From the NCBI GenBank assembly GCA_040954595.2, contig CM082593.2:7352043-7416042 (forward strand): a stretch of 64,000 nucleotides of DNA. Reading direction: 5' to 3'. Below, one piece after another: positions 6,052 through 56,100 of this stretch. Origin of the DNA: Balanoglossus misakiensis. Its lineage: Eukaryota; Animalia; Hemichordata. Both the position numbers and the translations under genes were made by a program. Position 1 is the stretch's first letter. Every line of letters begins with the position of its first letter. Below the pieces are notes generated by a model that saw nothing but the letters and a program-made list of their open reading frames with translations, searched no databases and was not told the origin of the DNA.

Positions 6052-6247
6052 TTAAAGGTATATGGTCAACTAAGGAAAATTAGCTATGTAGTTACCATGG
6101 CAAACTGAGATCTAGCCAATCACAAATTTTCAGTGGGTGGCACACCCGAAAAAAAAGAGCGCCACCATATGTTCTTTAGAACGCTCAAATACGCCATTTC
6201 AGCCATATATGGGCGTATGTAAATTGGAGGTGACTGTATACCTTTAA
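6052..6247 (+). mobile_element. Kolobok/T2-type MITE, family 1 copy 2
   Basis: TTAAAGGTATATGGTCA...GGTGACTGTATACCTTTAA; internal similarity to 1590-1778. Confidence 0.8.
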
Positions 6248-15248: not shown

Positions 15249-15279
<31 letters not shown>

Positions 15280-26942: not shown

Positions 26943-26997
26943 TGTTGTTTCTCGGTTGCAATTTCCTAAAATGATTACCGTGGCTGCTTCTGCTGGC

Positions 26998-27005
26998 TTT
27001 TTATG
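26998..27005 (-). promoter_or_regulatory. TATA-like element of nodal
   Basis: CATAAAAA on the minus strand about 60 nt upstream of the ATG. Confidence 0.45.
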
Positions 27006-32468: not shown

Positions 32469-32479
32469 GGGGAAACCCC
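32469..32479 (+). promoter_or_regulatory. NF-kB (kappaB) site upstream of IL-17 copy 1
   Basis: GGGGAAACCCC about 120 nt upstream of TATATAA (about 32597). Confidence 0.65.
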
Positions 32480-33519: not shown

Positions 33520-36500
33520 GCATCTTGCGGCCGAGTACGTCCCGACTAGCATCTTCCGGGAACCCAGGCTTCTAAAAGTTTCTCAGATCGCATCTAAATC
33601 TAAATGAAAAGCTCATGCATTTACAGAAAAGTTTCTTTTTATAAACATACCAATTTGAATTTTATTTTGCAGCATTATGAAAAGCGTTTTGGGCACATGG
33701 CAATATTCGTCTCACTGAGATGGATAGTCGCGCACACTTTTGAAGATATTTGATTATTCGTACATCTGTCACACTCAAACTCTGTTTGCATGAGGCAGGT
33801 ACAAGACGTTGTCTTGTCGTCAAAGATATTACTTACTAATTTATTTAAAATAAGCGTATATAACATTTTGACATTCACGATGCTGACCACTTTACAAAGT
33901 AAATGACGTGTCAGCTTGAGTTGCCAATTTTTTTTTCTGACCACGCAAGTTATGCATCCAATTATTCATTGGGTAACGGGCAGCATGTGAACTTTGACCC
34001 GTAAAGGTGATAGTTCACACAGATCCGCCAAGTGCTCAGTGATCTATCAATGTATGTTACGTTTTCAGTGACACCATTTGTAAGTTGTTACAACTTAAAT
34101 ACATGTAATCGATTGTCATCGATTGCTAAAAATATTTATTTGAAAGTAAATGTTTTTATACATTTTTGAAAAAAAATATCAATGCAGAAAAATTATTCTT
34201 TTTTTTGGCTATTGATACAATTTGTAGTTTCTTTTTACAAATGCTATCAGGAGTTTACATTTTCGTATATGAATTAATCAGTTGTATTTGATTACTTCGA
34301 AAATGTATTCTAATTTATTTTTACATATGTAAAACAAAAACTTATCCTTGAATTGTATTTATTTATATTTTAGTCATATGTATCTTTAATTTATCATGCT
34401 AACTTAATTTTTGTTACAATTTAGCTAAATAAATATGTTTTGGTGCACTATATCTTCAAGTTGTGTGTGCATTTCATTCTCGGGGGAAAGCATGGAAATT
34501 TGTGTTTTTCTTCTTCTGGCGTTTTCACTTCTTGATTGCTGTCAGTATTTAGACGGCAAGATGCCGGGATCATGGACAGGGACGGTGTCCCATGTATGCT
34601 GTCGACAAGCGCTTGTGCCGTTTTGGTCCGGCGTTGTTATATAACTGCGCGTTCATGAAACACTGAATTCACACGGAAATCGTCTACGGCAGCACCTGCG
34701 TCGCCAACTTACACAAAGAAGGCGTGAGCGACTGCTAACAGTCCGTCTACCATGTCAAAATGCGTAATGACACCACTCTATAAGAAGATGGCTTGCTGAT
34801 GTTAAACTACGTTCTCCAGAAGGCCGCATGGTCTTCGACGATTTTGTGAAAATTACTCAAGTTGCAGATTCTCGACCTCGGAAGAAGCGCACATATAGTT
34901 ACATACAAAGTTCGGCAAGGGTGTGTCATCTTTTGTGAAATATTTGACCCAGACCCGGAAAAGTACTTAATATACTATCTCGTGAATCTTTTGTTGTAAA
35001 ATCTATGCCTTACTTTCATTAAACTCCCAGGGGAATATAGGCGATCCGGTGCATAAATCTAAAAATAACTTCGCCGACGTCACTTGCACGTTTGGTATGC
35101 GGATATAGACACGATATGCGCTCCTCTGTTATTAGGCCCCGCCCACGTTGTCTCTTGTGTTGTTTTGTGTTGTTTTTGTTTATTTGGGATGGGTTACCAG
35201 TAACAACGCTAAAACTGCATGAGATAATCACTGTGAGTATGGGCTATATGACGTATACATTCCAATGGTCTATCAAGTGTGGAAATGTCTACATTGCAGT
35301 ACACGTACGTCACCACTGAGTCACCTGAGTCAGGCCTACTAGCTACAGTCGAGGGCAGCCGATAATTCGTTTTACTCAACCGAGTCGTTGATGGCGCACC
35401 TCATATGCAGACAGACAAATCGGTGCCCTTCTTTACTTATATGTTTTGACCTTCCTACAACAACTCAAATCAATCATATCAAATCAAGATATTCTTTACA
35501 CTGTGGCCTTCGGAGTCTTAAGTATTACTTGACAGGTCTACTATTTCGGTAAATATCTGTAGACAACGCAAATCTGATAACAGCTGTATGAGGAGACCAT
35601 CCCGGGAGACCATATACCGAAAAACATGACCCATTTTTTTTATAACCACAACTTTGACGCTATTTTAAGTCTAATTATGTCATAACCCGACAACACATTT
35701 TGAACAGCGTAATATCCGCGTCGCACCCGATCCTGTTTGGTCAACAAAAATACAAACAAACAAGCACCCTTCGCAGCAGACGTCACAAAATACTTGTAGG
35801 TCATTCGAACAATAGAGGTGAAACGCACTGTTTCATGATGGCGCAGCGTGGACAGTGACTCTCCCTATAGGCCTATCGCTAATTGAGCAAAATCCTACGC
35901 GTACTAGGAAGCATTCGAGAATTAAAACTGAAGTATAAGCTTAAACAGTATCGACTGATCATTTTGGGAAGTGCTGAAGACAACAGCTACGCCCGGAAAG
36001 TTACATGTTGTTCTAACTTTGTTGTTCTGTTCCGACTTCCACCCGGATGTGAACCGTGACCACAAACCCCGTTATACCGGAGCTAGTCCGAAAGGCGCGC
36101 CACTAAACACCATTCCATTCCAAGACAATGATTATCCACGTCAGATAAGACAAATATCACTGCCTGCAATTAAAAAAACATACATTGTTCGTGAATAGAA
36201 TGGGGACAAAATGGTCATTTCAGTTTTCCTGGTTGGACGTCACTGCACGTGCAACAGGTTGCTCTGACGTCATCCAGTCAGCAGACGACATCTGTTTGAA
36301 GAGATTTTGTTCGGTAGATCACTGTCGACTGGATGATGGATAGAGGAGGAAAACAACGGCTTTCTAAAAACCGCTATAGCTGCTTTCTGTATACTGATAA
36401 ACTACAATAAACCAAAACTGGATCAAATGAGATACCAGTGCTCATTTTTGCCCATTGAAAGTCAAATAATCAGCATTGTGTTAGTAAAAATTAAAAACCG

Positions 36501-36807
36501 TTTTTGAAGTGACAAGAACAAGAAAATATACAAATTAAACTTTATTTAATAATGTAAAAGTTTGACTGTCCTTTACCGTCGAAAAGGTCACGTGACCATT
36601 ACATAGAATACTGCAAGCAGAGCACGTAAATTTCCAGGATGCTTATTAATAAACAATCGTTATGATGAATTATTTCGGAATTCCATCGTGGTTGTACTAA
36701 ACCCAATGAATACGTAATGATTTACTCTCCATTCGTGCTCATAGCATCTGCTGCACTAACGCGTTGTAGCTAGGCGTGGCGTGGCACGTTTCCAAGTGAC
36801 ATCATAA

Positions 36808-36818
36808 GGGGAAGTCCC
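36808..36818 (-). promoter_or_regulatory. NF-kB site upstream of IL-17 copy 2
   Basis: GGGGAAGTCCC (reverse complement GGGACTTCCCC) about 600 nt upstream of the ATG. Confidence 0.55.
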
Positions 36819-37413
36819 GATTCAGGAAGAGGAGTCACGTTACTAAATTTGTCGCGCAAATCTCTAAAAGATGAACGCATCTATCTTGGTTGTTGACACA
36901 AAATGTATAAAAACTGAAGTTTTGAAGTGAACAGGTATTCGGGCTGACCAAGACAGACAGACAGAGAGACAAACCAAGACACAGACAGCAGCGGTAGTCG
37001 GCGATCGACGGTCTTGTAGCGTCCAGTTGCAGCATCACGTGACATCTATTGGTTGAATCAAGAACCCCCTAAACCCCCTCCCCTCCAAAAAAACTCCCAG
37101 TGGAATACCGAACATCATGATGAAATCGAAATATGTGGTGAGTTTGTCCACTATGGAGAACGTTGTGTTTAACAATGTATAGTATTTTAATGGGAGAGTT
37201 GTTCTATGCAAGACGGCCAGGTCTTCAGGGATAAAGAAAACCAGAGTTGTTCATGGCGATGCCCTTTGCCATTGGGTTTTTTTTTGTCGAAAGAAAACGA
37301 CTTTGAATACTTCTGCGTATCGGGTTTACAGCTCTGCAGACGAACACTGTTTGTATCCTTTAATAGGCTGAATGACGTAAAACTCTGAGTAAAGATAAAC
37401 CATTTTACTGTGT

Positions 37414-38047
37414 ATGATAAAACTAGTGAAGACAAACTTAGTATGTCAAGCATCACGACCGCATCCATGATGCGTATTTATTTGTGTGGAGAGGGAACAT
37501 TTACTTTTTCTTTTCTTTTTAAAATCAAATTTAACAAATCTACGTTTCCGATTGTTTGCAGGTTGCCATTATTGTCTGTGTCATTTGTATCTGTGGTATC
37601 CATGGCAACCCAGTCAAGCGAGATGCGTGTCAACACCCGAGCCAAGACGATCTCCGAGCTATGCTGAGCCAGTACACCAACAACGCCCTTTCCTTCGCGA
37701 CGACACCGGGAGCCCACAGCCCGCCTAATTCGTCAGCCTGTCCCGGCGACGACTACGGGCGTGGAGCTCCCTTGGAACTGCGATCCAACTGCCCGTTCTA
37801 CAACGTCGAAGACACCGACGACCAGCGCTACCCGCCCACCTTGCTTCAAGCCGAATGTTACCAGTGCAAGAACTGCTTAGACGACTCCAGAGAATCCGGG
37901 TATCACGTGATGTACAGATGTGAGAAACTCACGCATCACGTTTGGGTCTTACGTAACAGTAATATTTGCATCGGGGGAATTTACCAGTACAACGCCGTGC
38001 AAATCGACATACCTGTTGCTTGCACATGCGCAAGAGAGAGACGGTAA
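37414..38047 (+). CDS. IL17: Interleukin-17 family cytokine, copy 2
   Basis: Probable exon 1 37414-37440 (MIKLVKTNL|gtatgt), exon 2 37562-38047. RSNCPF, DQRYPPTLLQAEC, CTC. AATAAA at 38545. Confidence 0.9.
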
Positions 38048-40575
38048 AACCCGGCGGAGTGGTTTAGGTTTTCACGTCTTGGTAAAACATCCAATGTGAA
38101 GACATATCTTTCACTTACAAGGTATATCGAATACTAGTAACTATGCTATAAGTGTATTTGTTACTATTTCTGAAACCTGTTTGTAGATATTTATTACGAT
38201 AAAGCATACGCACATTTAGGTGTATTACTAAAAGTATTTTACAATGTAAAATTCATATTTCAAGTTGTCCAGTCGTCGACACAGCAAAACACATCACAGC
38301 ACAAATGCAAGGCACCCTTCCTTTATTTAATTGTCAACGCGCAAGTCATGCGTCTTTTTAACGTCCCATCAAAACAGACCTGACGTTGATATTCCACCGA
38401 AGGTCTTTTATTACGATGGGACTTTTATGTATGTTACGTTCTAGTGACATTAATTGTACTCCCAGTGAGAATTGCTTATCATATTTATTTCATTTTAAGT
38501 TATTTAAATTATTACACTTGTAGTCTGTGTGGGCTTTTCCTTACAATAAAACGCATTACATTAGAAACAATATTCCTCGTGTGTGTGATCGCTTTGCTGG
38601 AACTTGTACAATTTGATATCGTAATTATTATTGCGTGAAAATGAACATATAACAATGACTAGTCATAATCATTTAAGCGATGCATCACCACATTATGTGC
38701 GAAAACACCAGCGGATGACCTATCGAAATCGAAAAAGGGGTCTTTACGCAGGAGAATGCGTGCGTGGAACAGCGACAGGCTGCTTCGTCATTGGGAAACC
38801 GAATTTTTGAGTTTGGGGCGTGTATGAAGCCACGTTAGATGTAGACTTGCTCCAAGTCTATGGGCTTCATTATGTGTAGGGAACGCGCAGTCGACGCTAC
38901 CCGAAACCACAAGCTCAGTCCCAAATTCGAAACTCACCTCACTACCAAAAACACGCTCAAGGCAAGCATTCACGCAAAAAGTATTGAAATTATTTATTAA
39001 GACAAAAAAACCCACCGAAAACACATTAGGCCTAAGTATTGAGATTTAAAAATCACCAAGCGACTAGTGGGCTAGTCTAGATTGTATGACGCAGGGGGGC
39101 GTATAAGACTTATCTCCAAATTACTTATGGCTAAACTACTTCAGACGAAGTGGACGGAGTACAGATAATTTCTTGGGGACTAAACATTATGGCTCTATAC
39201 GCCTGGTGCGATGCGAAAAGCACAATCCTAAAGTTTGGTCCGGCGCCGGCAACGATATACAGGTCACGTGGTTTCCCTTTGACCTTTGCGCTACATTTTT
39301 TAAACTTTGTACTATATTTTCGATTGTTGTCCTTTTTTATTTTTATTGCTAATGTCAGACGTCACAATACGCAGACTGGACATGGTTTTCTTTATACTTC
39401 CGCATTGAACAAAACTATTTGCCTTATCCACTGTGAGTCACAACAGTCTCACTTGACACGGTTATAAAACTGGCGTACGTCACTGGCATTGGTAAGGCCA
39501 ACTTGAACAGAACGACCGACGATAAATTTCAGCTCCGGAATGGAAATTTCGTGCGCGATCCACCGTGATCCTGATTTTTTTTATTTTTACATTTAAGTTT
39601 TTTTTCTGATCGAGTTTCTCATATGCCCACGATTCGCTATTGCTGAGAAATGGGTGAAATGTTCACTCAAATTATTGTTGTTGACGTCACTGTGACGTGT
39701 GTGGCACCGGTTTTTCTAGATTGGAAGATCTGCTGTGAGTGGACTGTGGAAATACTCATAAATAACCCGGTACGGATACTACTTTTTTGAAAATTAGGTT
39801 AGGCAGGTCGGAAATCTTCTAGGATTTTGGATTTTTTCGAACTTCTGCTGTGTGTTTTGAAGGCGCCTAAAATGCCGGACTGTCACCAGTTCATGCACTT
39901 GGCTTTTAAATATTTGGGGTTGGTCAGCCTGAGAACCACAACAATGTTTCGGCCGTAGGCCTACAAAGGAGGGAAAGATCACCAAGAAAGATTTCTTCAT
40001 AAAAGTATAGTTCGCATAGTTTAATAATCTTTAAGTTTAATAGAGCTATGAAAAAAATCTCGACAGTGAAATATTTACAGTTTCAGTGATTTGTCTAAAC
40101 AAAAGTACATATTATAATCTTGTAAATTATATAAATAAAGTTCATTGTGTTCGCCATAAATAAAAGTTACAATAAACAAATTTATATAAAGAAAAAAATA
40201 CAACGGTGTTCTGTAATGTGTTCCTCGCAAGAAGGACAACTGACGTCACTAAAACGCAACATACATGAAATTCCCATAAGATGACCCTGTGTGGTTTAAT
40301 TTTGTCAATCCACGTCGTTTTGATGGGAACATAACTGTTATAACAAGACGCGTTACTTGCGTAATGATTAAAAAAAAGACACATATCAAGTCGCTGGATC
40401 CGAAGATAAAAAAATTAACTCGCAAACCCATTTAGACTGAAAATATGGCTGTTTAAAACATAAAATAATACAATTTCTACGTACTTTGTTGTGCTATGAA
40501 TGTAAGCACCATGAGTTTGTATTCGTTTCGGACGGATCTGTAATTTTGCGCCAATATGAACTAGTATATTTTGAG

Positions 40576-41926
40576 TTATCTTCTTTCTCTTGCGCATGTG
40601 CAAGCAATAGGTATATCGATTTGCACGGCGTTGTACTGGTAAATTCCCCCGATGCAGATGTTACTGTTACGTAAGACCCAAACCTGATGCATGAGTTTCT
40701 CACATCTGTACATCACGTGGTACCCGGATTCTCTGGAGTCGTCTAAGCAGTTCTTGCACTGGTAACATTCGGCTTGAAGCAAGGTGGGCGGGTAGCGCTG
40801 GTCGTCGGTGTCTTCGACGTTGTAGAACGGGCAGTTGGATCGCAGTTCCAGGGCAGCTCCACGTCCGTAGTCGTCGCCGGGACAGGCTGACGAATTTGGC
40901 GGGCTGTGGGCTCCCGGTGTCGTCGCGAAGGAAAGGGCGTTGTTGGTGTACTGGCTCAGCATAGCTCGGAGGTCGTCTTGGCTCGGGTGTTGACACACAT
41001 CTCGCTTGACTGGGTTGCCATGGGTACGACTGACGGAGATTGCGCACAGGATAATTGCAAACTGCGAAAAAAATAATTATGAAAACGTCATAAAATTTGT
41101 TACATAGATTGATTTTCATTTCAAAAACTATAGTTTTAAAGTAATATTTTAAACTGTTGTAGTGTTGTGAGAATTTCCAAACAATTTTGAAGCAAGTTGA
41201 CTAAACCATGTGTTCTTTCGTGGAGGTCTACTGTTTCAAGGCAAACGTCCAGTTATTTCCCAGACTTAGATGGTTTCGGTTACTTCAACTATTAGCAATT
41301 TCCTGGTATAATAAAACCCTTGAAATCTAAACTACGGTCTTACTAAGGAGTGTACTGTTTTGATGAAGTTGCTGTTAATCTCGACTACACGGATTTCCGG
41401 ATGAAATAGAATTTGGTCACATTAATTATTTATTTTTTATTCTGGACAGAGTGGTGGACGCTCATGTTGGTGAAGATTTTAAGGTTCCCTGGAAACTATT
41501 CTTGCCCCACATTTCGGCAATGCTAAAATATAAGTGACGACTTTATGAATTAATACGGCGAGTTTGATTCCGTTATGTGTGTGATTGGTAGTGCGTTGAA
41601 TTGCATGGATGATGTCAATATACCAACTGGAAATGCTCATGGTGTGGGTCGGATTCTGTGTGCTGGTGCAGTGAATGTGTAGTGATTTTATTAAACGGGT
41701 TCGGATTCCTGAGAAAACGTTTTCCCTTGAAATTCTCACCCTACAGAAATATCGTTTGATGACGGAACTGATTATGCATGCATACAGGTTGTTGATCACG
41801 TGGTCTAAAGTGGGGTGGCACACGTGAAAGTCTTATGGAACAAAAATGTGCCGTTTGTTATAAAATGCCTCTACACGTTAAAAACAAAAAAAAACTCACC
41901 AAGAAATGTGTGTATGATTGGTCCAT
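40576..41926 (-). CDS. IL17: Interleukin-17 family cytokine, copy 3 (inverted; mature region near-identical to copy 2)
   Basis: Exon 1 41926-41900 (MDQSYTHFL|gtgagt), exon 2 41061-40576 (ttcgcag|FAIILCAISVSRTHGNPVKRDVCQHP...). TATAAAA at about 42110 on the minus strand. Confidence 0.9.
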
Positions 41927-42209
41927 GCTTATAGCGTTACTTGTAAATGTTGAAGTAAATGGAAGGGTCTTGAATGAGTTTAGTCACGCGATGTCGGTGG
42001 ACTTCGGTACCGTCGATGATCGTCCGGAAGGCTGAGGCCCAGTTGAGAGTAGTGTTCACCTCCGTCGGAGTGTTCAAGTCGAATGGCTTTTTGCTCGAAA
42101 TTCTCATGTTTTTATAGAAATGTTTCGACAGTACCAAATTAGCTCGCTCGGAAAGGAGCAACCTATTCGCGATCGCATGTTGCTAAAATTACGACAGGTT
42201 CCTGGCCGA

Positions 42210-42220
42210 GGGGAATTCCC
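42210..42220. promoter_or_regulatory. Palindromic NF-kB site upstream of IL-17 copy 3
   Basis: GGGGAATTCCC about 95 nt upstream of the minus-strand TATA box. Confidence 0.7.
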
Positions 42221-44170
42221 TCAGCCTGAGAGCTTTCTTCCGTGAACAAAACCAGCACGACCGATCCGTGTGAATAATGGATCTTATTTTTTAATTAGGG
42301 TACTATAATACAATCGCTCTAAAATTATCTGATAGTTAGTAAACGAAGTGAGTCACTGTCATGACAACCAGGTAAACAGTCGAGTCCCCCGCGGCCAGCG
42401 GCTGTGTTGTTGGGGACGTGACGCCTGGAGTAACCGTACGGGCCAAAAACTGCACCGTTAGTATTATACACACTTTTGGGACTCGACTGATAAAACATAT
42501 TTACATTTATACAGGCGCATATACCCATGCGCACTAGTGTCAGCCATTTCTGCAATGTACCGCGTCGACCAAAGCTGCAAACGATCAAATCGGCTCTGTA
42601 ATCTGTTTTTGAGACCTCGAGTGGGCAACTTATATGGGAAGACATTCTCATGTGACACAGGACAAACAACGCATTGCCCATCGTGTAATAAACGTACAAA
42701 CATTTTACAATTTTTGTTAAATTCTTCACCTATTCTAGTTTCATTACAAAACTTGCCTTGTATTTCTTGTCTTGCAACCCGTAGGTTTCACTGTACTTTT
42801 GCAGAATACAATTGTGTTATCGATATTCATCTAATCTTAACGACGTCATCGAGTCTACTGGGTTCGCCCCCAAAATATGGTTTGTAAACAAGCCCTTTAT
42901 TGATTTTATTGCGCAATCGATTGCTTCTCAGAATAGCTGAATTTACTTCATGCGATGTTATGAAACCTGAGTTCAAAATAAAGATACGTTCTTTTGCTCT
43001 CAGCCATTATTAAGACTGTTTAAATAATTAATTGTAGACTGCAGGAACAGCTAAAGACGTCTCAATGTTTAAGGATAACTGTGTCAGAATACAGAGAAAA
43101 CAACCGACACGATAGTACAGTGACTCGTACATTCAACCAGGCGGGAAAACTGACAGGAACGACGAACAGCTGCCGCACACTTCAGGGTGTCCACCGGAAA
43201 GTTCGACAACTTTCTTCCCTTTGTCCGAAATTTCACAACGTCTAAATCAAAAGGCGAGGTATAAGATTGTGACGTCATACACACGCGGTACGCGTCGCTT
43301 CGTGACTTACGATAATGTCGCACATCGCTGATGACGATATCTTGTGACTCACCCAAAAGGAACATTCGAAAGTCGTACGGGGAAGTGCAGGACGAACTGT
43401 TATCAAGAGGTTACCATACGGAGGTATACAAAACTAAGGTATATCTTCTGGACGTATACACTAAAGTAGATCGTCTATGATGACCTTGGCAGTGTGAAGC
43501 TGGTCATTTTTGTCATTGTTCCATGACGGAATAAAATCAATCACTTTTTTCACATCGAAATTATCTTTTCTTAGGAACTGATTAACCCACAGTCGGGAAA
43601 ATTAAACTTTAATTATTATTTTCTATCCGCAACTTGACAAAAAATAGAAGATTTCTAATGTATCTCTCGCCATACAGCAATATCATTTCGTCTAAAATTC
43701 CTATTCATAAAGAGTTCATAACCGAAATCAGTCTAACTTATTTTCTATTTTGCCTATATTAATGAAATTTTACCACAAAATGTTGATCTTGTACCAAAAT
43801 TGGCCAAAATAAATATTGGTTGTCGTCGTGATGAAATTGCTGCAAAAAAGAAGTTATCTAAACGGAGGACAGAGCGAAAAATGTCGGGCTGGAATCAGAC
43901 ATTTAAAGGTGTCTCCATACTATGGAGGTATAAGGAAGTGGTCTCGCTAACTTACAACGAAGAACATTGGTCTTAGTTGTGACCACCGCCTTCGCTTGTT
44001 ATCATGGCGAACAATGGCAATGACGTAAAGGAGAACTGTCATGGACGGTGCCGATGGTGGCGCTCGCCATGAATCAGTCTGCTATGTCGACACACCCCCG
44101 TGTGTTTTATACGCACAGGAACTCGAGGAAAACCGGTATCTATAGTTGAAGATAGCTGTGAGATTTTGCA

Positions 44171-44503
44171 TGGGTGTGTATGAAAATAATGGAGGGTAGT
44201 CGTTCAGACATTAAACAGGGGCCTTGGGCTTCATTGGAGTTCAACATCTGAACGATGCTTATAACATGACTCACAACAACATCTGGTGTACAGCATGGCC
44301 AATCACGAAGCACATACTGCTGTCCTGTCAGCCAATTGGCGTGGGTGTGTATGAAATGAATGGAGGGTAGTCGTTCAGACATTAAACAGGGGCCTTGGGC
44401 TTCATTGGAGTTCAACATCTGAACGATCTTTATAACACGACAACAACATCTGGTGTACAACACGGCCAATCATAAAGCACACAGTCCTGTCAGCCAATTG
44501 GCG
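44171..44503 (+). repeat. Tandem duplication of a ~170-bp unit (2 copies)
   Basis: TGGGTGTGTATGAAA..GGAGGGTAGTCGTTCAGACATTAAACAGGGGCCTTGGGCTTCATTGGAGTTCAACATCTGAACGAT..GTCCTGTCAGCCAATTGGCG occurs at 44171 and 44342. Confidence 0.9.
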
Positions 44504-46282
44504 ACTGGAACATGTACAACTATATACAGTGATTTTCATTGGTTGAGGATGCATGGCTTCACCAGGTGCTTTGAGACATCTGTGACTGTGCTTCATTCGT
44601 GTCACCTTTTTCACGGTAGAAGCCGCGTGTCGGATGACAACGAGTCCTCAGTGCTCGTTACCCAAAGTACGTAAAAATTTGAAGCAAAAAACATGGAAGA
44701 AGCTGACTTAAGCTCAGGTTTACCACATCAAAGCAGATTGTTTATGCCAAAGACGCAATACTATAATTGCACACATCTTCATTTATTCCGGATTTTAAAC
44801 CCATATGCCAAACACTCGCTTCATACAGAGGGGTATAGGGTTGGCCAGCGAGACAAACGAGGAGCTCTTCGTCAGCATTTGGGTGGTAGAAAGACTTTGT
44901 GGTTAAAATACAGCTACGGTGGCGGCCATATTCGCTTGCGGCAAAGCTTTATTGTTTATCTGGTTAAAACTTGCATATGCACTCATATTTAGGGTTTATA
45001 ATGCTTGTGTATGGTTCACTGCCTTCATCTGCATGGACTAATGGTAGTACAGTTTGAAACAAAAATTATGATAATTATCCCAAAAGTTGCAGCTTATGTG
45101 CCTTTAAGTGCGGAAGAAACGCGGAAAAACCCGCGGAAGTACCAGACTCAGCGAGTCTAAAAAATGTCAACGATCGCAAAATTTATCTTATGACTACAAT
45201 CGGAACTATTTTGTGCATGATTATAACCTCTCCATATCGTATAAATCAAGTGAATTATATGAAAACTACACTGACATTGTAGCAAATTGCTTGATTTCTG
45301 TACATATTAAGATTGGTTATTTACAAAAATTACTTTAATATTCTGCTAGATTGCGAATGTCTATACATGTACTAATTTTTTTACAGAAATGTTCTCAAGA
45401 CGTTATTCTCGCACAAGTAGTTCGGATCCGATCGTGGTAATTCGAGAGATACCTCGAATGAATACAGGAATATTTTTTTAATAAAACGAGGCATGTCTAT
45501 TGTAAAGCATAGTACCAAGTTGATTTCATCCATGGTTATGCGCATTCCATATTACACGCCGGAAGTGTGGATAAAAAACTTGGCAATGAAGGTTTTTATG
45601 ACTACACCTGACCATGTAAATGTGCTTGGTTCCTTGTTCCTACTTACCGGCAAACAAACTGTCAAAAATGCGTTCCTCAGTTTTGTCACGACATTATGAC
45701 AAAAGATTTGATTGAGAGAAAAAAACGCAATTTGGAGATAGAAGTAATTTTTGTCGAAATTCCGAAAATAAGCTTTTGAAGCATGGTTGCATAATGTGGA
45801 AAATCGCTGGGAAGTGGGTAATTAAGGGTCATAAATGTCGAGGGGTATCGAACGCGTCTGATCACTTGAAAACTGCACACACTTTCTTCGTTTTAGAACG
45901 CGCGTTGTCCTTAACCGTCCATTGAAGTCGTTGCATTCTGGTGGACGAATTATGACATGTCAACGACTGTTGCTTTGATACCAATATTAATAAACGAGGG
46001 CATTATAATTTTAATTTGAGTTTTTCTTGATACTTGTGTTGATAAAGAAGTATTGCGGTCTGATAATTGTGGAAAGTACCGGTCAAAACAGTGACGACAC
46101 TTTCAACTAAGAATAGAGTTCGTGATAAAAAAAAAACTTCAACCGCCAAGGTAAAAGACATTTTTATTGGAGTAAAATCATATAAAAGACCTATTGCCAT
46201 CCAAACCAAGTCACATTTTACTTGCTTTGAGAGAAGATCAAGACCGAAGCAGAGATTTCAACGTCAGAACACACGTACAACG

Positions 46283-47347
46283 ATGGCGTCATTAATGAAA
46301 ACCACTCTGGTGAGTTTACATGATTTCTCGTTGAGTATACTCGAAATCTTTGGAAGCTTCATGTTTGCCGCTGTCTGTGCGCACGAGAACCATCATGTGG
46401 TGCAAGAAATGTGAGATGGTTGATACATGCTATACCCAGAAAGCTCTTCGTGGTTACTCACGTTCCGTGGCAGTAATAAGTTGAATTTCGAGAAAACGCT
46501 ATTGTCATTTTCATGAAACTGTTCAAAAAATGCCGGAAGAGATGTTTATCCACTGATATAAAGGAAGCACTATGTTACCATGCCCGATTACTAGTTTTTT
46601 ATCAGAAAATATATTTCAACCATAGAAAAACTATAACACGTATGGAGAGTGAAGTTAAGGTCTTATTTGAGATGCAAAGCATAGGTCAACGTGTTCACAG
46701 TCTTTAACTGAAAATACACCGTTTGCTATTTAGTTTTCTTGATTTTAAAATTCATTTAAAAGTTTAAAAAAAAAAACAATATGACAATATTTTAAATTTT
46801 GAGTAGTCTCCAAACTTCGTGTTCTTTATCTTAATGTAAGCTTATTTTTTTTCCCCAATACCAGGTCGCATTCCTTTTGTGTATGGCTCTTGCGGATAAT
46901 GTCCATGGCAGTCCGGTCAAGCGAGAGGCATGCCAGTCCCCGAACGAGGATGCTCTCCGAGCCGAGTTGAAAGAGTTCGCGAACAACGCCCTGGGCTACG
47001 CGGTGACATCCGGGGCCTCCACCCCGCCCAACGTGACCGACTGCCCCGAGAGCTACGGGCCGGGCGCTCCGCTGGAACTGCGATCGAACTGCCCGTTCTA
47101 CCATGACGGAGTCACCGACGGCAACCGGTACCCGCCGACCCTGCTGGAAGCCGAGTGCTACGACTGTGCCTATTGTCTCGATGATTCCTCCGAAACCGGG
47201 TTTCACGCCCTCTACCGATGTGAAAAACTCACCCGAGAAGTTGTAGTTTTGCAAAGGGGTGTGTGCAGTAACGGCACTCATTACGATTACAACCCTGTCG
47301 TCTACGACATAGCCATCGCTTGCACCTGCGCAAGAAGTCGTATATAA
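46283..47347 (+). CDS. IL17: Interleukin-17 family cytokine, copy 4
   Basis: TATAAAA at 46181. Exon 1 46283-46309 (MASLMKTTL|gtgagt), exon 2 46865-47347. RSNCPF, NRYPPTLLEAEC, CTC. AATAAA at 47818. Confidence 0.9.
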
Positions 47348-50300
47348 AATAACCATAAATAGCTCTAACGCTTCGATACTTCTGGAAAACGAAATTATGA
47401 AGACTGCATTTTTCATTGGCGGAATTGCTATTTAAATTAGAAATTAGGGATTTTCTTATTATTAAGCGTATTATCAATATCATCACTGCATATATTCATC
47501 TTAAGTTATTTTTTGCTCAAAATCGTCTACTCTTACATGAGCACTAGACATTTCATTCTGACGTGTACAATATGTACAATTTTCCTCGCGAGTATCACGC
47601 ATGTTATTCTTAAAGATTTCCCAACAAAGAATGTGTTTTGTCAAAAAAATTTAAAATGTATGTTACGTTGTAGTGACACAATAATGTATACCCCGTTCCA
47701 GGGCTATTTTCGTAAGGCATTATGGTGCGCATGCGCATGGCCATTGACTCATTTGTCGCTGGATATCTCATGTTTACTCTGTAACGAAACCGCAGTGAAT
47801 AGACTGCTTGCATTGCAAATAAAGTTACTTTCTGACGGACATCTATACATGGTCAAATGAAAGATTGAGTGTCTCGTTCTCAAACAAGTAATGTAACATC
47901 GCAGATCACGTCGTTGTGAGGGTGTATAGACATGGACGCAGGTATAGGCCTATGCAATAGTAACTGTGTATATTCTAGTTACTTGTTGGGTAGATTTTGT
48001 TCATATATTCACAGTATCTCTAAGTATAACCACAGTAGTTATGATCGAGCTGCTATTTTATTACGGAGATAAATCAGTAGGAGCTATGGATGCTACTTTA
48101 CGCTTTGTTAGCAGTAGGCCTAATTCTGAACTTGAACGAGTCAGTTGTATGCCAACTTGGCCTACTCACTGACTGTATAGAGGAGACCAGAGAACATGAC
48201 AGAACAGCACAGCACAGAACAGAACAAAGTAAAACATTGCAGAATTTCACACACAGAGTTTCCGCTTTGAGTTTGAAGCGACGTAGTAAATGTACCCCTT
48301 CTACAAATTTCATTCGCCTTCGAACAATAACACGTGACGTACGCGTTCCCTAAAGAGGTGCGCCGAGAGGTAACCATGAACACTGCTTCATTGACGGGTA
48401 CAGCGTACACAAAGTATGACGGCATGGAACTTGATATTATAGGACTACGTCAAACTACGTACGGCAACCGTGCCTTGCATGACGTCACAGCGGTCAATCG
48501 ACCTCGCTTATACACGGTTGCCCCTTAATTCACACCCTGTGTGTACTACCGCCCAACACCGTTAAAATTGATCGATACCGGGGTTTCCCCGCTCCGCTCG
48601 CCAGCCAAGCGTACTTCCTTCTTCGTCAGTCACAGACACATCCCTTTGTTAAGGTCATCAGGCAAAAGAAAAAAAAGGGAAACGGTGCCCGAAAATACAT
48701 ATAGCGACACTTGATGTTCACGACACGGTTGTAATGCATCGTCGTAAACGACACGCCTTTTTACGACAACACCTCCTGCTCTGATTCGCGAGAATGAAGT
48801 CATGGTGCTTCTTTACTGAGACAGTTTTTCAGCTTTTATTGCAACGAACCTGGAAACTGCAAACTATGTCAACAAAGCAAACTCACAAAATGGTAGACAA
48901 CGAAATCTTTTTTTGGCAGGGTCACAAAGTCTCTAAATTTCTTTGTATGACTTGAAAAGTTGCGCGTTTTTCTTGTGTAGAGTTTTTTACATTTTTCTCG
49001 AGTAAAAGTCGTATGCTTTTGTAAGACTGCTGTTTTCTCGAAAGCAATGACATGCTTTAAAGAGTTAAGTCGTGGACGCTATGTTTATTACTATCTCCTG
49101 CCTATGACAAACTTTGACCAGATTCTAATAAACCTTCCATGGTATGTATTGCGCGCGCACAACTTCCGCCGGCGAGTTGGGTGGGTTATGATCGATTTTG
49201 CGTGAAAATCACCACAGTGATTAATGATTTGGGGGTGTATGTATATGACCATGGATCACTCTCAAACCGGACATCCAAACGGCGTAAATACAAATACCCG
49301 GATTGAAATTGTTTTTGTTTTTTTATCCGCACTGTTTGCTCCGGGATGCGGACTTTATAATCGGAAAACATGTTACAGCAACATAGATATGACTGATTCC
49401 ACACCGATACAGAGAATAGACTTTACATACCTTGGGAAGTAATTTCAGCAAGTGAACTTCGTGGTAGCTGTTAACTGTGTCTGGGCTGATGATCAGTTTG
49501 CTTCGACGAAAACCTGTATCAGAGTAGTACGCTGTAGTCCGGACAGGTGGTAGACTGAATGAAAGGCGCGTGGACTATAAGTGATATTTCAATACCTCTT
49601 CATGCAGAAGCTAGCGATCTTCTATGGATGGAATTGCGGAATTGAAATTTAGTAAAACAGATCATTTGCTTTTCGGTAATTTGTGTTATTTATATTAGCC
49701 GTGATCGTTTCTGTCATCCGGGTCACGCGGCCAAAAATATCAACGGCACTTGAAATGACATCCTCCGTAAAAAAAATAACACCAAAGGGTGGTGAATCTA
49801 TCATTTTGCGCTGTAAAACTTCCCTTCCCGTGGAAATAATATAAGGAGATATAAGTACAAAGGGATTGGATACTTGCTCAGTTACGCATTCAGGGCATTG
49901 TATAGTGTTTTCAATAAAAGCATAAACATTTTATCTAAAGGTATAACTGACACAGTGGAAGTTATCGGCCGAAAACCCTTCAGAGTTTCAGACGGGCGTC
50001 TGAAAAGCTGTCGTGTTTCAGTGTTCCATTGGCCAGTACTGTAAATGCACCCGAACACACCCACCCCTCCCATTTCCTTGAAATCAGATCAAACCATATA
50101 TACCAGCAGGTAATTGTGAATAGATGGGGACGTACCTCTGGTCTTCTTATTTGTTGCTTAAAGTGGAGACGCCTTGTGACAATGAATGTTTCGCTAATAT
50201 ATGAGCAATTGACAGTTTACCGTGAACACTTTATCAGCGAAACATCTGGAGAAGTTCGATATTTGAAACCCCCGGTAGAATCTTGTGACTCCGTTGTGAA

Positions 50301-52325
50301 TGGGGATGGTCTCCATTACCGACGAAAGTACCCACGTATAAGGTGCTTGTAAAGTCCCTTATTTACCAGGATTACTCCAAAAGGACCAGACTTACTTTGA
50401 CGCAAATTGAAATTAAATTATTATATGACGCTATAATCATTCAAAGTGATGTGAGATTAATACGGTTTCGTTCTGTGGGGGAAAGAATCGAAATAATAGA
50501 GAATTTTGAAATTGGTAGAAACTCACTAACTCACTCACTAACTCACTCACCCATTCACTCGTGATATATCCGAATTAGGCCTAATCATTTTAATCAACGC
50601 CATTATAGCAAGTTTCAAAGTAGGAACATGAAAGATAATAAACGAAATTGACCAAATGCAAACTCCAGTGCGACGTTTAAGACATACTCGCCGCTGTCAG
50701 TGACGAGGAAAAAGAACTCTACCACCTGTATGTTTTGCTCTTTGGGACGTGTACATGTGTATTTATGTTCCTTTCTGATTTACAAACTTAGCTCAGGGCA
50801 AGCGAGAAGAGCTTGATTGCCGTTTCCACCACCACAGTCCTTCCACACACAGAATGGACGTGTCTTCATGATGTCGCAAGTTGTTTTCACAGATTGCAAA
50901 CATTCAGTGTATAGTTAAAAAGTGCCGCACCGACCGGAAGATTTCCTAAATATATTTTACATCCACCCTTAAAATGGCATTCGTGTGGGCGCAAGTGGTT
51001 TTATGCTACCGTATAACGGACTCATATTGCATGCATAGTTGACATTTTTTCCCTCTGAAGGTGTGTCGGGATTTATTAATAATGACGGGAGAACTAAAGC
51101 AATCGGGGAAAAAATCATTCCGATGTGCTATGAAAATCTAATTACCTAGAAATGTAAGAGATCCGACTGTTTCTTAGTAAAATCTGGCATCAGCGACGGA
51201 GGATTAGCGATATTTATTGATTTCACTCCACACCATCTTTATATTTTATCACTATTGAAGTCATGGTGCCACTTGCTAAATGTTAGCTTATACTAGTATT
51301 AAAGAAAGGTGTGTATTTCATTGACAGGATTCATTAAAATTGATACAGAAGTAAGATTAATTTCCGATAGAAGTATCCATAAAGCAACACTTTAAATGAA
51401 CATGTTGATTAACCAAATAAATTACAACTCCCCACAAAAACTGTAAACGAATTTATAGGGCCTAAGTAATTTTGAAAGAAATCTTGTGTTAGCTAATTTA
51501 GCAGAACACAGTTTCAAACTCCAAGTCTTATACATTCCAATAAATATCTACCAACACGAGCATTTGTGCGAAACCAATGTCAAGAGTACAGGACTAAAAA
51601 AACGTACACTAGAATACACTGGCAGATATCATGGACGAATTTTTGATATGTAGCATATTAAACATCCACATTAGTCTAGGCTTTATACGCACTGTTCGCG
51701 CAACACCGGCAAAACCGGAAGTACTTGAAATAATTCTGTCTAAGCTACTTGTTTGCCTGATTCAATACACGAAGCTTCAAAATCTTGTGTGTGTATATTT
51801 TACTAATAATATCATCATTACCACAAGTGGCAGTATTTCAATTTGTGATTTATCAATATTTATGGACAGTATCTAATACCTATTTCCCTCTGATGTACAT
51901 CCTGGTAGGCAATCCATAGAGTCTACTGTATATTGTTAACATTCAATATTGAGTAGAATGCTAAATAGGGGAAGTGTGGCTCCCTACTTCGGATCACGGT
52001 CATTGTGAATTTCTTCTCGACTCGTTCATACAGGATCACCGTTACTCATCTGTTAAATATAACCCCCTCCCCTCCCCCCTCTCGGTCTTGCTCGGTATGT
52101 CGACACATTCCGAAATTTGGAGTTCGGGATGCCTAAACAGATTCCAACATTACGCAAGTTTCCAAACTTGTAAGTCTAATAGGGTATATAAATTCAAGCC
52201 CGTTGCCAACCAAGTCAACATTATACAGAGATCATCAGTCTGCTAATACTATTAAGGGCTGCTTTGGCATATCCTCCACAAATAGTATCTGGTTTTAGAG
52301 ACTGCTGCCAGCTTGAAACTTAAAC

Positions 52326-53165
52326 ATGGATCAGATTGACAGATGTATGGTAAGTACTTGACTTTTTTTCATCGATCAGTGGTTAACTTATGGTATAGCC
52401 AGTACCAGGTCTGTTTGAGAGCTTTTTAAAACAATGTTCATTAGTTTTTATCCGTTGAATTGAAATACCGTTTCGGTGGAAAAATTGCAAACTTCCATAC
52501 ACGTACAGATAAAATCATGTTTCTCAATCGATATAAATTGTCGTTATTTTTTTTATTTCACTGCTGGACTTCTAGTAACGATAGTAACGTACAAACGACT
52601 TGTATTTACATCCCGTAAAATTCATTTGAGTATTCTGCTCAGGTTTGTTAATATTCCCGGTGTCTTTTTTCAGATTGCGTGCTTCCTTGTCATGATGGCT
52701 ATCGCAGGTAGCTATGGCAACCCTGTCAAGCGACAAACATGTCAACAACCAAGCGATGAAGCTCTGGAGGACATGTTAATGCTGTACACGCCAAACGCCC
52801 TCTCCTACGCCACCACTTCCGGGTCCTACAGCCCGCCCTCATCGACCACCTGCCCAATTTCGTATGGTTCAGGCGCCCCCTTGGAAATCAGATCGACCTG
52901 CCCTTACTACCACGTTGAAAACACAGACAACGACCGCTACCCGCAAACCTTGGTTGAAGCCGAATGCTACGATTGTCAGAACTGCATCAGCGATCTCATC
53001 GAGAACTCCGACTACCATCCAATATGGCGGTGTGAGAAGATAACGACTGGTGACCTCTGGGTGTTGCAAAACACCTACACCTGCAACGCGCACGGTTTCT
53101 ACAATTACGTACCAATCAAAGTCAAATTATCAACAGCTTGTACTTGTGGCAGAGAACGCGTTTAG
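52326..53165 (+). CDS. IL17: Interleukin-17 family cytokine, copy 5
   Basis: TATATAAA at 52185. Exon 1 52326-52349 (MDQIDRCM|gtaagt), exon 2 52674-53165. RSTCPY, DNDRYPQTLVEAEC, CTC. Overlapping ATTTA run at about 53329-53341; AATAAA at 53799. Confidence 0.9.
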
Positions 53166-56100
53166 GTAATGAAGAAACCAACGGATTTCGTTTTCTTTCG
53201 CTTTGCTTTCTCGTTTTCGCCATGTGCCAGTTCCGCTATGCCTGCGTAGATCGTCACACGACTATTTTACATATGAATTATTATAGAGTTTATGCGAATT
53301 TTATTTTCCTGGAAACATTATCTTTTAATTTATTTATTTATTTGTCATTTTCATTTGTCCCCTGTGGACTCACTACAGAGATTGGATTATACATGTACAA
53401 TGTACATGTCAGTATTTATGCCTGGAATGTACAACATTTAAACTGTAATAACCCCGCAAGTGATGCGTTTAACTTACATGTATATGACCCAATGGTATGA
53501 AGCCACGGCTTTGGTAATCACTTCTTTGAAAAAAGGGAGTATACGATAATGTTTTGAAATCATCAGTGAAACTACAAAACGATTGCTACTATCGTGCTCT
53601 GAGAAACAGAAATCGCTGAATACTTTGGGTCGTATGTGTGGATTTGTTAGTTACGTTATAGTGACAACTGTGTAAGTTTTGAAAACTTTATTATTTCTCA
53701 TATACGGTTGAAATTCCGTAATCTGTTTACTTTCTTTCTTTTAAACTTTTGCGATGTTGTCTAGCATGTCATCAATCAAACTTTTAATAGGAAACTTTAA
53801 TAAAATGCAAAGATGCTTCTATAAATAGTTTGTGATGTGTTTTATGAGAAACGGAGATGCTCGCCAGTATGTGTATGAATGATAGAGATAGAGCGACAGA
53901 GAGAGAGAATGCGACAGAGAGAGACAGACAAACAGACAGACAGACTTTTGTTGTCGGTCGTTTACATTGCGGACTTCATCGGCACAAGCTGAGGAAGTCC
54001 TTCATGCTTGCAATAATAATTTCCATTTTATTACGAACATGACACATACACATATATTGGAAAATCCTAAGATATATTGCCAGTTTGTGAATTAACCCCA
54101 TCCCGTCACGCCCTATACGTATACCATACGTGGCATACGACCTAGAGCTAAAGGGGGGGATGTGTTGAGAAATTGCAGTCAACGGTGCTGGCTGAGTTAT
54201 GCTTAGTTTTCAATAAATAGTACGCCCCCTCTCACGTCGACTCCTTTCCGGTTATCCCAGAATGCATAGCGTCTTACGTCATGGAGTTCCGGTTATCAAA
54301 ATGGCAGACGACATGTAAGTTCGTAGTCCAGTAGACACTGAGTGACGGTACAGGCATTTGAAATGTTTGAATTTCGCCAATCTACGGAGTTTTGTGCTAT
54401 TGAAAAGAGGTAGCGTTAACGTTTTTCATTTATGCGATGATTTCAGGAGATCTACGCGTGTTTGAACAACATTTTCGGATATAATGTAGGCCTACAAGCT
54501 AGCCTTTCTCGCCAGTGGTGAAGACTGCAGAATGTGAGTTATTCGCTCAAGGAAGAGTATCAAATGCTCCCAGAGATTTGACAAACTGACAAGGGTTAAC
54601 GTTGGACGACGGACCTCCGCCACAACCCACCCCTTCCCATCAAACAGGTAATCAATTGATGTACTGTGCAGACATGGGACAAAGACTCTTTACTTGCTAA
54701 CATGTCTCTCGAGGTCGACGAACTTTATGATGCGGAGCATTTCGCAGTCCTGGGCTTCAGTTTAATTGCTATGAGGAATATGTGCATGTAATATTTCGCA
54801 AGATCGTACAGAATCACACAGGCTCTACACAAATGGACAGCCATATGGATGTTGACATCTTTCAGGGTAAGTCGCATCTTTTTCTAGATGGTCAACATAA
54901 ATCGATCGGCCTACACTGGCATACGATCAGTACGCGCATGGGCTAGTGACATTTTGCGCGGGCGATTGCTGGGTAGTCTTGTAAGACCTGTTTTTTTTGG
55001 TCGGCCTGGCTAAACCTGTTCTGACACTGTGAAGCTTGAAGCGGCATCCGCGCCTATTACGCCAAGCCTGGGTTCATCCCCAGATTGAATGTGCGCCCTC
55101 AACATTTCGCTGGGCCGGTGATTGCTTGGTAAAACCGAGAGAATTATTTTCCCTTCCGCCGGACGACAACTGACTGTCGTTGAAACGATTTGTCGGCATT
55201 TTGGACCGCTGTGTTACTTAAATGTGGTGCCTTTTGTCTACTAACTTGCGACGATCATCATATTAGTGCAAATTATAACATATTTGTAGCCCCTTGTAGG
55301 GACCGTGTTAATAATTTTGTCGACCTTGGCGGCGAGATGTTCGTCAAGACGTTTAAGTTTACGACGGATACGTGCTTTTCCCCCTCAAAGAATCGTGCCT
55401 ATCACCACTGTCAAACTAATGTCCAGTGATATAACCATTGGGTTATTTACCGTACGTGCGCATCTTTCCAGGAATATATCTTTTTGTCACCTCAAATGTT
55501 GTGACGCGTCTGTGTACACAATTCCCTTGGATATGCAAAGGGAAGTGAATTCACCGAAACGTTTAAAGGTCATACTGCAAGTTGTTTGCTGTAGATTTCA
55601 ATTTTGAAAAGAGGTTACCTGTGTCTTGAAAACAGTCCGAAAAAAAGCTATAGCGAAGGGGATGTTTTTCATAGCCACTAACTTAAACACACAGAACTGT
55701 GTAATTATCTTCCACACTCACAGAAAAGATTAAAAACACGTGTAAAGTTGGCGGTAAATATTCATATCTTCCATAGTTCGATCGCCGGTATTCACTGATC
55801 TTGTTTCTGGAAATGGCAACTGCCATTGTCGGCAAAAACATGACCGCTGGCAAAACAATTCTTGAAGGTCTACTTCCGCTAATACACATGTTTGACTTGT
55901 ACTCAAATTGTTATTTACGTCAAATTAGTTTATCCGTTGCTCGGCCACTTTCTTGGAATTCTCTCTAAGCCATTCCAGATTCTGTCACGCCAAGAATTGA
56001 GGTACTTCTCCGCATTCTACACATGCGTCGTCTTGTTGAGTGCGTTTTTATTGAAATCGATCTACAACCCTTCAGTTTACATTCTGCCAAGTGTAGTGGT

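Follow-up and report, generated by a model that had tools for sequence, protein, structure and literature searches.

The question raised by this locus is why a short block of sequence recurs behind five neighbouring IL-17 genes of Balanoglossus misakiensis, and whether the hairpin that it is predicted to form could be an alternative decay element (ADE) of the Roquin type, as an earlier sequence-only reading had proposed. The window analysed here is the whole stretch of 64,000 nucleotides from contig CM082593.2, and all positions are given within it.

The IL-17 gene cluster

Six neighbouring tandem IL-17 paralogues, with their closest relatives in Ptychodera flava, lie in the window, and all six score above the curated cut-off of Pfam PF06083 (37.8-52.1 bits; cut-off 24). 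Copy 1 (32712..33519, plus strand) has a predicted exon 1 at 32712-32753, called from pattern only, and exon 2 at 33043-33519, with its first AATAAA at 34428-34433. Copy 2 (37117..38047, plus) is predicted to have exons at 37117-37137 and 37562-38047, with the first AATAAA at 38545-38550. Copy 3 is inverted (40576..41926, minus), with predicted exon 1 at 41900-41926, exon 2 at 40576-41061 and ATTAAA at 40295-40300, 40036-40041 and 40020-40025. Copy 4 (46283..47347, plus; predicted exons 46283-46309 and 46865-47347) and copy 5 (52326..53165, plus; predicted exons 52326-52349 and 52674-53165) have their first AATAAA at 47818-47823 and 53799-53804, respectively. Copy 6, which is without the hairpin, is represented by exon 2 (58727..59224, plus) and a first AATAAA at 59485-59490 (+261); its exon 1 was looked for and not found.

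Copies 2 and 3 have 93% identity over the whole of exon 2, acceptor through stop, yet no alignment of their flanks could be made. At fourfold-degenerate sites, identity is only 34-65% in 14 of the 15 paralogue pairs. Copy 6 is nested with copy 5 in a 10-row tree (96/93), the base of a 27-row tree is unresolved, and the paralogue groups that carry the block have separate orthologues in P. flava. Further orthologues are XP_077999651.1 and XP_077999654.1 of Glandiceps and XP_006812732.2 and XP_006818600.1 of Saccoglossus. Scanning metagenomes with the IL-17 alignment gave 176 pattern matches, none of which was confirmed.

A conserved block in the 3' flanks

The block spans 16-23 nt, is common to five of the six paralogues and lies on the sense strand 314-536 nt 3' of the stop. 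All five hairpin sequences listed in the sequence-only reading were recovered at their positions and strands, and the stems begin at +536, +384, +314, +314 and +485 after the stops of copies 1-5, in line with the 310-540 nt first estimated. The same reading had described the flanks as unalignable except for short blocks, the hairpin being the strongest, and this proves correct: searching the five 950-nt flanks for the 18-mer that they share best returns the hairpin block, with 63 of 72 matches against 52.3±1.0 (maximum 57) in 150 shuffles and 51.6±1.0 (maximum 54) in 100 sets of real tiles of the window. With copy 3 left out, the score is 48 of 54 against a control maximum of 42, and the 5' regions of the five genes give a best 18-mer score of 53 and no alignable block. 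The conserved sequence is in fact longer than had been said, with ATGTA before the stem in copies 1-4 and TGT 5-7 nt after the stem in all five. Over both strands (128 kb), C-GUUNUA-G with 5 bp or more of stem is seen four times, always in these hairpins, against 0.27 in 60 shuffles, whereas the strict GUUYUA form alone (2 against 0.35-0.85 in shuffles) is not significant by itself. A covariance model recovers the five copies on which it was trained, at 35-42 bits, and no others; the next match reaches 15.9 bits. In the 3' flank of copy 6 the block is absent, the best match being 11 of 18, and the covariance model finds no match there either.

Rfam covariance models returned no match at E up to 1 in 33000-60500, and a pattern search allowing three mismatches gave an uninformative count (5 against 3.41 expected). 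Five metagenome matches to the 21-nt motif were taken as chance, all lying inside long ORFs on contigs of 51-53% GC and without IL-17 similarity. By the usual definitions we set aside an iron-responsive element, a histone stem-loop, a SECIS element and a miRNA site, given the size of the loop, the lack of an in-frame UGA and the variability of the central base.

Judged from its position in the sequence, the block is likely to lie in the 3'UTR of the IL-17 mRNAs. The earlier claim that the hairpin precedes the first clear poly(A) signal holds for AATAAA in all five copies, but in copy 3 an ATTAAA lies at +276, 45 nt before the loop, so that four of the five hairpins precede the first signal of either kind. 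That the hairpin is on the sense strand in 5/5 copies, the inverted gene included, is likewise correct, but the argument once drawn from the inverted copy 3 is void, because orientation is inherited by duplication.

The block could also be without present function, either an ancestral remnant kept alike by short gene-conversion tracts or a sequence beyond the true 3' ends. Conversion does occur at this locus, as exon 2 of copies 2 and 3 testifies. However, conversion requires homology, of which the flanks have none, and the block of these two copies is only 82% identical over 45 nt. The block is moreover common to paralogue groups with separate P. flava orthologues, and its score is far above all controls. 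We consider this explanation very unlikely.

Predicted folding of the block

The predicted fold is a stem of 5-7 bp closed by C-G, and the RNAalifold consensus of the copies is this same hexaloop hairpin. Copy 1 (34055..34073, plus) has a 6-bp stem and a 7-nt loop, GUUUUCA. Copies 2 (38431..38450, plus; loop GUUCUA) and 3 (40243..40262, minus; loop GUUUUA) carry the strict ADE consensus on stems that we correct to 7 bp, and ten consecutive bases of the copy 3 hairpin are identical to the start of the Roquin SELEX consensus. Copy 4 (47661..47678, plus) has a 6-bp stem with loop GUUGUA, and copy 5 (53650..53665, plus) a 5-bp stem with loop GUUAUA and a predicted 3-bp extension over a one-base 5' bulge. 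The stems of copies 1-4 (6, 7, 7 and 6 bp) fall strictly within the 6-8 bp of an ADE, and that of copy 5, with 5 bp plus the bulged extension, strictly does not.

The closing pair has a probability of 0.56-1.00 in all five copies in windows up to 120 nt, and it is higher on the sense than on the antisense strand in 25 of 25 settings. When whole predicted UTRs are folded with a 180-nt span, long-range folds disrupt the hairpin and the closing probability drops to 0.04, 0.00 and 0.02 in copies 1, 3 and 4. Sliding 80-nt folding z-scores fail to set the hairpin region apart consistently from copy to copy. One U-G pair of the stem is invariant, and copy 3 has two A-to-G changes at which pairing is preserved only as G-U. 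No double changes are seen in the six core stem pairs among the five copies, and covariation in the core stem is not above control (87-98 of 500 shuffles as high). The stem sequence hardly varies although Roquin is not reported to read it, which leaves a further constraint to be explained.

The loop and its match to Roquin

The earlier division of the loops is borne out, with exact GUUYUA in copies 2 and 3, GUURUA, a purine at position 4, in copies 4 and 5, and a 7-nt loop in copy 1. Taken together, the loops read GUUNUA: G1, U2, U3, U5 and A6 are invariant, apart from one inserted base in copy 1, the closing pair is Watson-Crick C-G in 5/5, and position 4, which is U, C, U, G and A in copies 1-5, is the sole freely varying base. 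In the crystal structure of ROQ with Ox40 (PMC5603727), loop base 4 is solvent-exposed and without protein contact, and mutating G1, U3 together with U5, or A6 abolishes ROQ binding to the Ox40 ADE. Compared base by base with that structure, the match to an ADE is better than the sequence-only reading argued, since the variable base is the contact-free position and the contact bases are kept. The suggestion that loop variants tune half-life per paralogue finds little support in copies 2-5, because base 4 has no protein contact; among the loop variants, the 7-nt loop of copy 1 is plausibly the only one that would weaken binding.

The published search consensus, a 6-8 bp stem with GUUYUA, predicts only 19 human genes as carriers (PMC6294493); copies 2 and 3 conform to it, and its strict form misses copies 1, 4 and 5. 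PMC11730611 reports that an ADE can accept changes at loop positions 1 and 4 as well as larger loops, and its supplement includes loop-altered ADEs, which may bear on the purines at position 4. In mouse Roquin PAR-CLIP, ADE motifs were not enriched over shuffles (PMC6145892).

The near-invariant sequence without double changes resembles a transcription-factor site, and its left half presumably resembles a bZIP half-site, so a DNA-level reading can be made: an enhancer or silencer on the 3' side, composed of bZIP-like and adjoining half-sites that form a near-palindrome by chance. Against this, the palindrome is imperfect in all copies, copy 3 departs further from it yet is fully paired as RNA, and in copy 1 an extra base separates the halves. 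No variants with one or two mismatches to the block occur elsewhere in the 64 kb, promoters included, and the loop pattern agrees base by base with a known RNA-protein structure. We regard a DNA site as highly improbable.

On these analyses, we think it rather probable that the conserved block is a Roquin ADE-type decay element in the 3'UTR of five IL-17 mRNAs. Residues Y250, K259 and R260 belong to the A-site of the Roquin ROQ domain. This site would stack on G1, U2 and U3 and read U3 and U5, with base 4 left in solvent. By binding the C-G-closed hexaloop, Roquin would trigger decay of the cytokine mRNA, recruiting deadenylation and decapping, and copy 6, without the hairpin, would escape such control. 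The promoters of copies 1-3 have kB-like sites, which the sequence-only reading also overlooked, called on what we take to be the kB consensus, at 32470..32479 (plus), 36809..36818 (plus) and 42211..42220 (minus), which are 118, 87 and 94 nt, respectively, before the predicted TATA boxes. Such sites combined with a decay hairpin would give a fast-on, fast-off cytokine pulse.

A possible alternative triloop fold

The block may be an RNA element whose main reader is not Roquin on the hexaloop: either an overlapping UGU triloop of the CDE or Regnase-1 type would matter, or some other RNA-binding protein would read the stem and the adjoining UGU(A) words by their sequence. The ATGTA extension of copies 1-4, overlooked in the sequence-only reading, is not needed by the hexaloop and completes a UGU triloop of 5-6 bp. 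In copy 1 (34049..34063, plus), this extension and the 5' arm form 6 bp and exclude the hexaloop fold, and copy 4 (47655..47669, plus) has a similar 6-bp alternative fold. The A-to-G change in copy 3 is compatible with both folds, the TGT 3' of the stem recurs in all five copies, and a second constraint, whether a triloop or a sequence reader, would account for the invariant stem. Both Regnase-1 and Roquin take Y-R-Y triloops (PMC13732794).

On the other side, the triloop has 5 bp in copies 2 and 3 and is impossible in copy 5, so that a Y-R-Y triloop on a 6-8 bp stem is possible in copies 1 and 4 only. It is not the dominant fold, being 3.8-6.4 kcal/mol weaker than the hexaloop, and its probability does not exceed 0.03 in copies 1-3 and is 0.11-0.23 for copy 4 in wider contexts. 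Its stem gives no sign of covariation, with 500 of 500 shuffles reaching its score, and the window holds no more Y-R-Y triloop hairpins than chance would give (50 against 54). The triloop explains neither the invariant 3' arm nor the ADE-like loop. We consider it unlikely that such a reader is the main one. Isolated CDE-like triloops, in copy 6 and elsewhere, are no more frequent than expected by chance.

A second helix upstream

The sequence-only reading missed a second helix, which ends 8-12 nt upstream of the stem in copies 1, 2, 3 and 5. In copy 1 (33966..34042, plus; arms 33966-33975 and 34033-34042) it has 10 bp and ends 12 nt before the stem, with 13 of 200 shuffles as good; in copy 2 (38363..38422, plus; arms 38363-38370 and 38415-38422), 8 bp, 9 nt and 1 of 200; in copy 3 (40270..40330, minus; arms 40323-40330 and 40270-40277), 8 bp, 8 nt and 20 of 200; and in copy 5 (53477..53640, plus; arms 53477-53492 and 53625-53640), 16 bp, 8 nt before the stem position and 0 of 200. 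Copy 4 is without such a helix (113 of 200 shuffles as good). The combined p of about 0.0006 is post hoc, because the helix was first spotted by eye; three double changes occur in 7 pairs among copies 2, 3 and 5. The helix is likely to support the hairpin site. We speculate that it would keep the hairpin free or give a second surface for Roquin or Regnase.

We further entertain, as a distinctly improbable extension, that these parts form an ancient composite Roquin/Regnase module on IL-17 mRNAs, in which the upstream helix is followed by a short linker and then by a single stretch able to fold as the ADE hexaloop or as the UGU triloop of CDE type. If so, the module would be older than the acorn-worm family split (up to about 370 million years), the selection of ADEs on immune transcripts would not have originated with mammals, and this would be the first overlapping ADE/CDE switch.

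Comparison with known systems

The sequence-only reading knew of no description of Roquin-mediated decay of IL-17 mRNAs in an invertebrate. Decay through Roquin and an ADE has been described for C. elegans ets-4, where the invertebrate Roquin, RLE-1, binds an ADE in vivo (PMC9371910), and the novelty of the present element therefore lies in its target, IL-17 itself, its lineage and its architecture. Invertebrates carry a single rc3h gene, and the ROQ domain is present in amphioxus Roquin (PMC11172303). In 2024, PMC11730611 put the number of confirmed ADEs at only about four and proposed a late origin of high-affinity ADEs, together with adaptive immunity in mammals; its text makes no mention of C. 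elegans or ets-4. If our reading is true, the IL-17 hairpins are the second independent invertebrate ADE and, in the literature searched, the first on IL-17 mRNA; they supply a natural series of five copies, in a deuterostome invertebrate, that varies just where the crystal structure permits it, and the search consensus would widen to GUUNUA. Such an element would also be a candidate mechanism for the rise and fall of IL-17 transcripts seen in sea urchin larvae (PMC5457136).

The ets-4 3'UTR carries an ADE and an RCE; RLE-1/Roquin binds it and REGE-1/Regnase cuts it (PMC9371910). It resembles the present case in being invertebrate and in having an ADE-type hairpin that adjoins a second structured element. 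It differs in that ets-4 encodes a transcription factor, unlike the IL-17 cytokines, and the IL-17 element is found in five paralogues. The neighbouring helix in the IL-17 flanks has no conserved apical loop and no recognised cleavage site. With the CDE and Regnase-1 Y-R-Y stem-loops (PMC6294493, PMC13732794), copies 1 and 4 share a UGU loop on a 6-bp stem, but the triloop has 5 bp in copies 2 and 3, is absent from copy 5 and is energetically minor; in UCP3 tests, activity was lower with 5-bp stems, and UGU had less effect than YAU (PMC6294493, PMC13732794). The multi-stem-loop Roquin response element of Nfkbid (PMC6145892) likewise places an ADE in a run of stem-loops. This likeness is clearest in copy 1, which has three further hairpins within 110 nt downstream, but such downstream extras are not common to the paralogues.

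The IL-17 hairpins also resemble the mammalian Ox40 and SELEX ADEs (PMC5603727, PMC11730611). Both have a C-G-closed GUUYUA hexaloop, matched exactly by copies 2 and 3, on a short stem; loop position 4 takes most of the variation, the 3' arm is purine-rich, and the element stands in the 3' flank of an immune gene. The IL-17 copies differ by purines at position 4 (copies 4 and 5) and the 7-nt loop (copy 1). The mammalian stem is long, GC-rich and bulged, whereas the IL-17 stem is AU-rich, of 5-7 bp and with an invariant U-G. In the mammalian elements the triloop fold stands beside the hairpin, while in the IL-17 flanks it overlaps the hairpin, and the target here is the cytokine IL-17.

Results

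Six tandem IL-17 genes lie between 32.7 and 59.2 kb of the window, as identified by open reading frames and by PF06083 in all six, and a short first exon, phase-compatible with exon 2 and downstream of a TATA-like box, is predicted by sequence pattern for copies 1-5. Four proteins were found among seven candidates in a word search, all from Ptychodera flava and 50-80% identical to copy 2, and among the 10 top matches identified of 555 in a profile search, the best five are Glandiceps and Saccoglossus proteins. Judged from these sequences, the DNA likely comes from a ptychoderid acorn worm, and the subfamily looks hemichordate-specific. In our trees, P. flava protein P0003 partners copy 1 (87/88), P0004 partners copy 6 (100/100), and P0001 and P0002 are grouped with copies 2-4 (100/98 in the second tree). 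This paralogue-wise pairing indicates that the main duplications are older than the split from P. flava. The Glandiceps and Saccoglossus proteins group weakly with copy 5 (83/75); for these lineages, divergence at about 373 million years before present is reported (PMC4729200), a possible upper age figure, not a result.

At fourfold-degenerate sites, 14 of the 15 copy pairs are 35-66% different, while copies 2 and 3 differ by only 5%. The 93% identity of these two is confined to the stretch from splice acceptor to stop (37552-38047, plus strand; 40576-41071, minus strand); their introns and flanks are unalignable, and a 45-nt hairpin block (82%) is the sole other aligning piece in about 3 kb. 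The sequences likely reflect exon-limited gene conversion between these inverted paralogues, and their flanks would therefore be older than the protein identity implies.

The cluster is adjoined by a TGF-beta family gene (23855-27008, minus strand), for which a Nodal/BMP2 chimera is the top hit among solved structures and which is therefore likely Nodal-like. Subtilase (Peptidase_S8) exons at 60546-62173 (minus strand; Pfam on 61240-61539) are convergent with copy 6. Dispersed repeats of 60-200 nt and 72-93% identity occur in introns of a multi-exon gene (1590-18241), for which the one exon tested gave no Pfam match. A 150-nt stretch of 70% identity, found 3' of copies 5 and 6 past the first poly(A) hexamers (54245-54393 and 59790-59932), is either a repeat or common regulatory DNA.

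The hairpin block is found 3' of the stop codon in copies 1-5, at 34055-34073, 38431-38450, 40243-40262 (minus strand), 47661-47678 and 53650-53665. All five hairpin sequences proposed by the sequence-only reading were confirmed; its placement of them before the first clear poly(A) signal holds for AATAAA in every copy, but an ATTAAA occurs sooner in copy 3, at +276. The block is alignable in 8 of 10 pairs of these copies, six of them at E <= 0.001; the 2.5-kb upstream regions of the IL-17 copies give no pairwise match at E <= 0.05, and the hairpin is absent from copy 6. Conservation exceeds the stem, with ATGTA 5' of it in copies 1-4 and TGT shortly 3' of it in all five. An unbiased shared-18-mer test selects the same block with 63 of 72 matches, compared with 52.3±1.0 (maximum 57) in 150 shuffles, 51.6±1.0 in 100 real tile sets and 53 in 5' regions. 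C-GUUNUA-G hairpins number four against 0.27 expected, and strict GUUYUA hairpins two against 0.35-0.85. The shared-18-mer score argues against a block without function, in our estimate the least likely explanation. Every covariation measure lies within the shuffle control (87-98 of 500 shuffles as high). In the 7-pair consensus stem, four pairs are invariant, two show a one-sided change to G-U, and the outermost shows a double change and is broken in two of five copies; one U-G pair is invariant.

The closing-pair probability is 0.56-1.00 in all five copies (mean of local windows up to 120 nt) and 0.25-0.92 at 300 nt, and the hairpin is lost in copies 1, 3 and 4 when whole predicted UTRs are folded with a 180-nt span. 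In the local windows the opposite strand always scores lower. Folding models thus make a strand-specific RNA hairpin plausible, with covariation offering no proof. A DNA site, which could account for conserved letters that do not covary, is very unlikely.

Discussion

The loop closely resembles the alternative decay element (ADE) that Roquin binds through its ROQ domain. In the ROQ-Ox40 structure as described in PMC5603727, the loop is closed by C-G with G1 stacked on the closing pair, Tyr250 stacks with U2 and U3, main-chain contacts read U3 and U5, A6 packs into the minor groove, and the base at position 4 faces solvent with zero contacts; binding is abolished by changes at G1, U3 plus U5, or A6. 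The contact bases and closing pair are invariant in our five copies, and loop position 4 (U, C, U, G, A) is the sole column with more than two letters in the 16-nt core. The SELEX ADE consensus agrees with copy 3 over its first 10 letters. Copies 2 and 3 both satisfy the consensus of a 6-8 bp stem with GUUYUA, which predicted 19 human genes, of which 4 of 4 tested responded to Roquin knockdown (PMC6294493). According to PMC11730611, ADE positions 1 and 4 are tolerant, tabulated natural ADEs carry C or U at position 4, and larger loops are bound at the micromolar level. The suggestion that loop variants tune mRNA half-life hence has little support for copies 2-5 and would apply to copy 1, with its 7-nt loop, at most, since position 4 is reported to be contact-free and tolerant.

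The stem letters are near-invariant although Roquin recognises stem shape, which may point to another RNA reader or to a triloop. An alternative UGU-triloop fold of the 5' arm, predicted to be made possible by the ATGTA extension and mutually exclusive with the hexaloop, would have 6 bp in copies 1 and 4 and 5 bp in copies 2 and 3. This fold is 3.8-6.4 kcal/mol weaker, reaches a probability of 0.11-0.23 in copy 4 only, and shows no covariation among the hairpin copies; we hold another RNA reader or the triloop to be unlikely, with some chance of being right.

Copies 1, 2, 3 and 5 each have an uninterrupted upstream helix that stops 8-12 nt short of the stem, with 13, 1, 20 and 0 of 200 shuffles as good; it is 16 bp in copy 5 and was not found in copy 4 (113 of 200 shuffles as good). 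Fisher's combined p is 0.0006, post hoc. A CCCA/UGGG core is common to copies 2, 3 and 5, where 7 pairs hold three double changes, provided that the arms are homologous; enclosed lengths vary widely and there is no common apical loop. Copy 4 (46865-47347) has a long branch, 0.96-1.31 in two trees, and keeps the hairpin although it is without upstream helix and kB-like site. Copy 1 has a 10-bp triloop hairpin at +185 (33704-33726) and three more hairpins directly 3' of the ADE-like one (34078-34160; the 80-nt window at +571 has z -5.1), none of them seen in other copies. Overlapping ATTTA runs, AU-rich-element-like in raw pattern matches, flank copies 1 (34355-34366) and 5 (53327-53341).

By raw count, three of the five kB-like loci in the window sit 87-118 nt upstream of predicted TATA boxes, in copies 1-3. 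Copy 5, without such a site nearby, carries at 52150-52157, about 30 nt upstream of its predicted TATA box, a C/EBP-like word. We consider it probable, from sequence and folding models, that these genes combine inducible transcription with Roquin-dependent decay through an ADE-type element: IL-17 transcription would be induced first, and Roquin would then promote deadenylation and decapping of the mRNA, a mechanism summarised in PMC13732794. A conserved sequence able to fold is where observation ends, and all later steps we infer. Sea urchin IL-17 subfamilies are reported to be up-regulated after bacterial challenge and then attenuated (PMC5457136).

Our searches of the open-access literature, reviews included, turned up neither an ADE in an IL-17 mRNA nor a 3'UTR element for hemichordate IL-17; a review notes that Regnase-4 acts on the 3'UTR of mouse IL-17A. 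For an invertebrate, ADE control by Roquin is already on record in C. elegans, where RLE-1 binds the ADE in ets-4 and ADE deletion raises ets-4 mRNA (PMC9371910). Invertebrates are reported to have one Roquin gene each (PMC11172303). As a parallel to the upstream helix, the nematode ADE requires an adjacent stem-loop (PMC9371910), and the double- versus single-strand preference of the second Roquin RNA site is disputed (PMC11730611). By sequence and predicted fold, the five-copy element appears to belong to the known ADE kind, while its natural loop variants and composite layout could amount to a distinct ADE variant.
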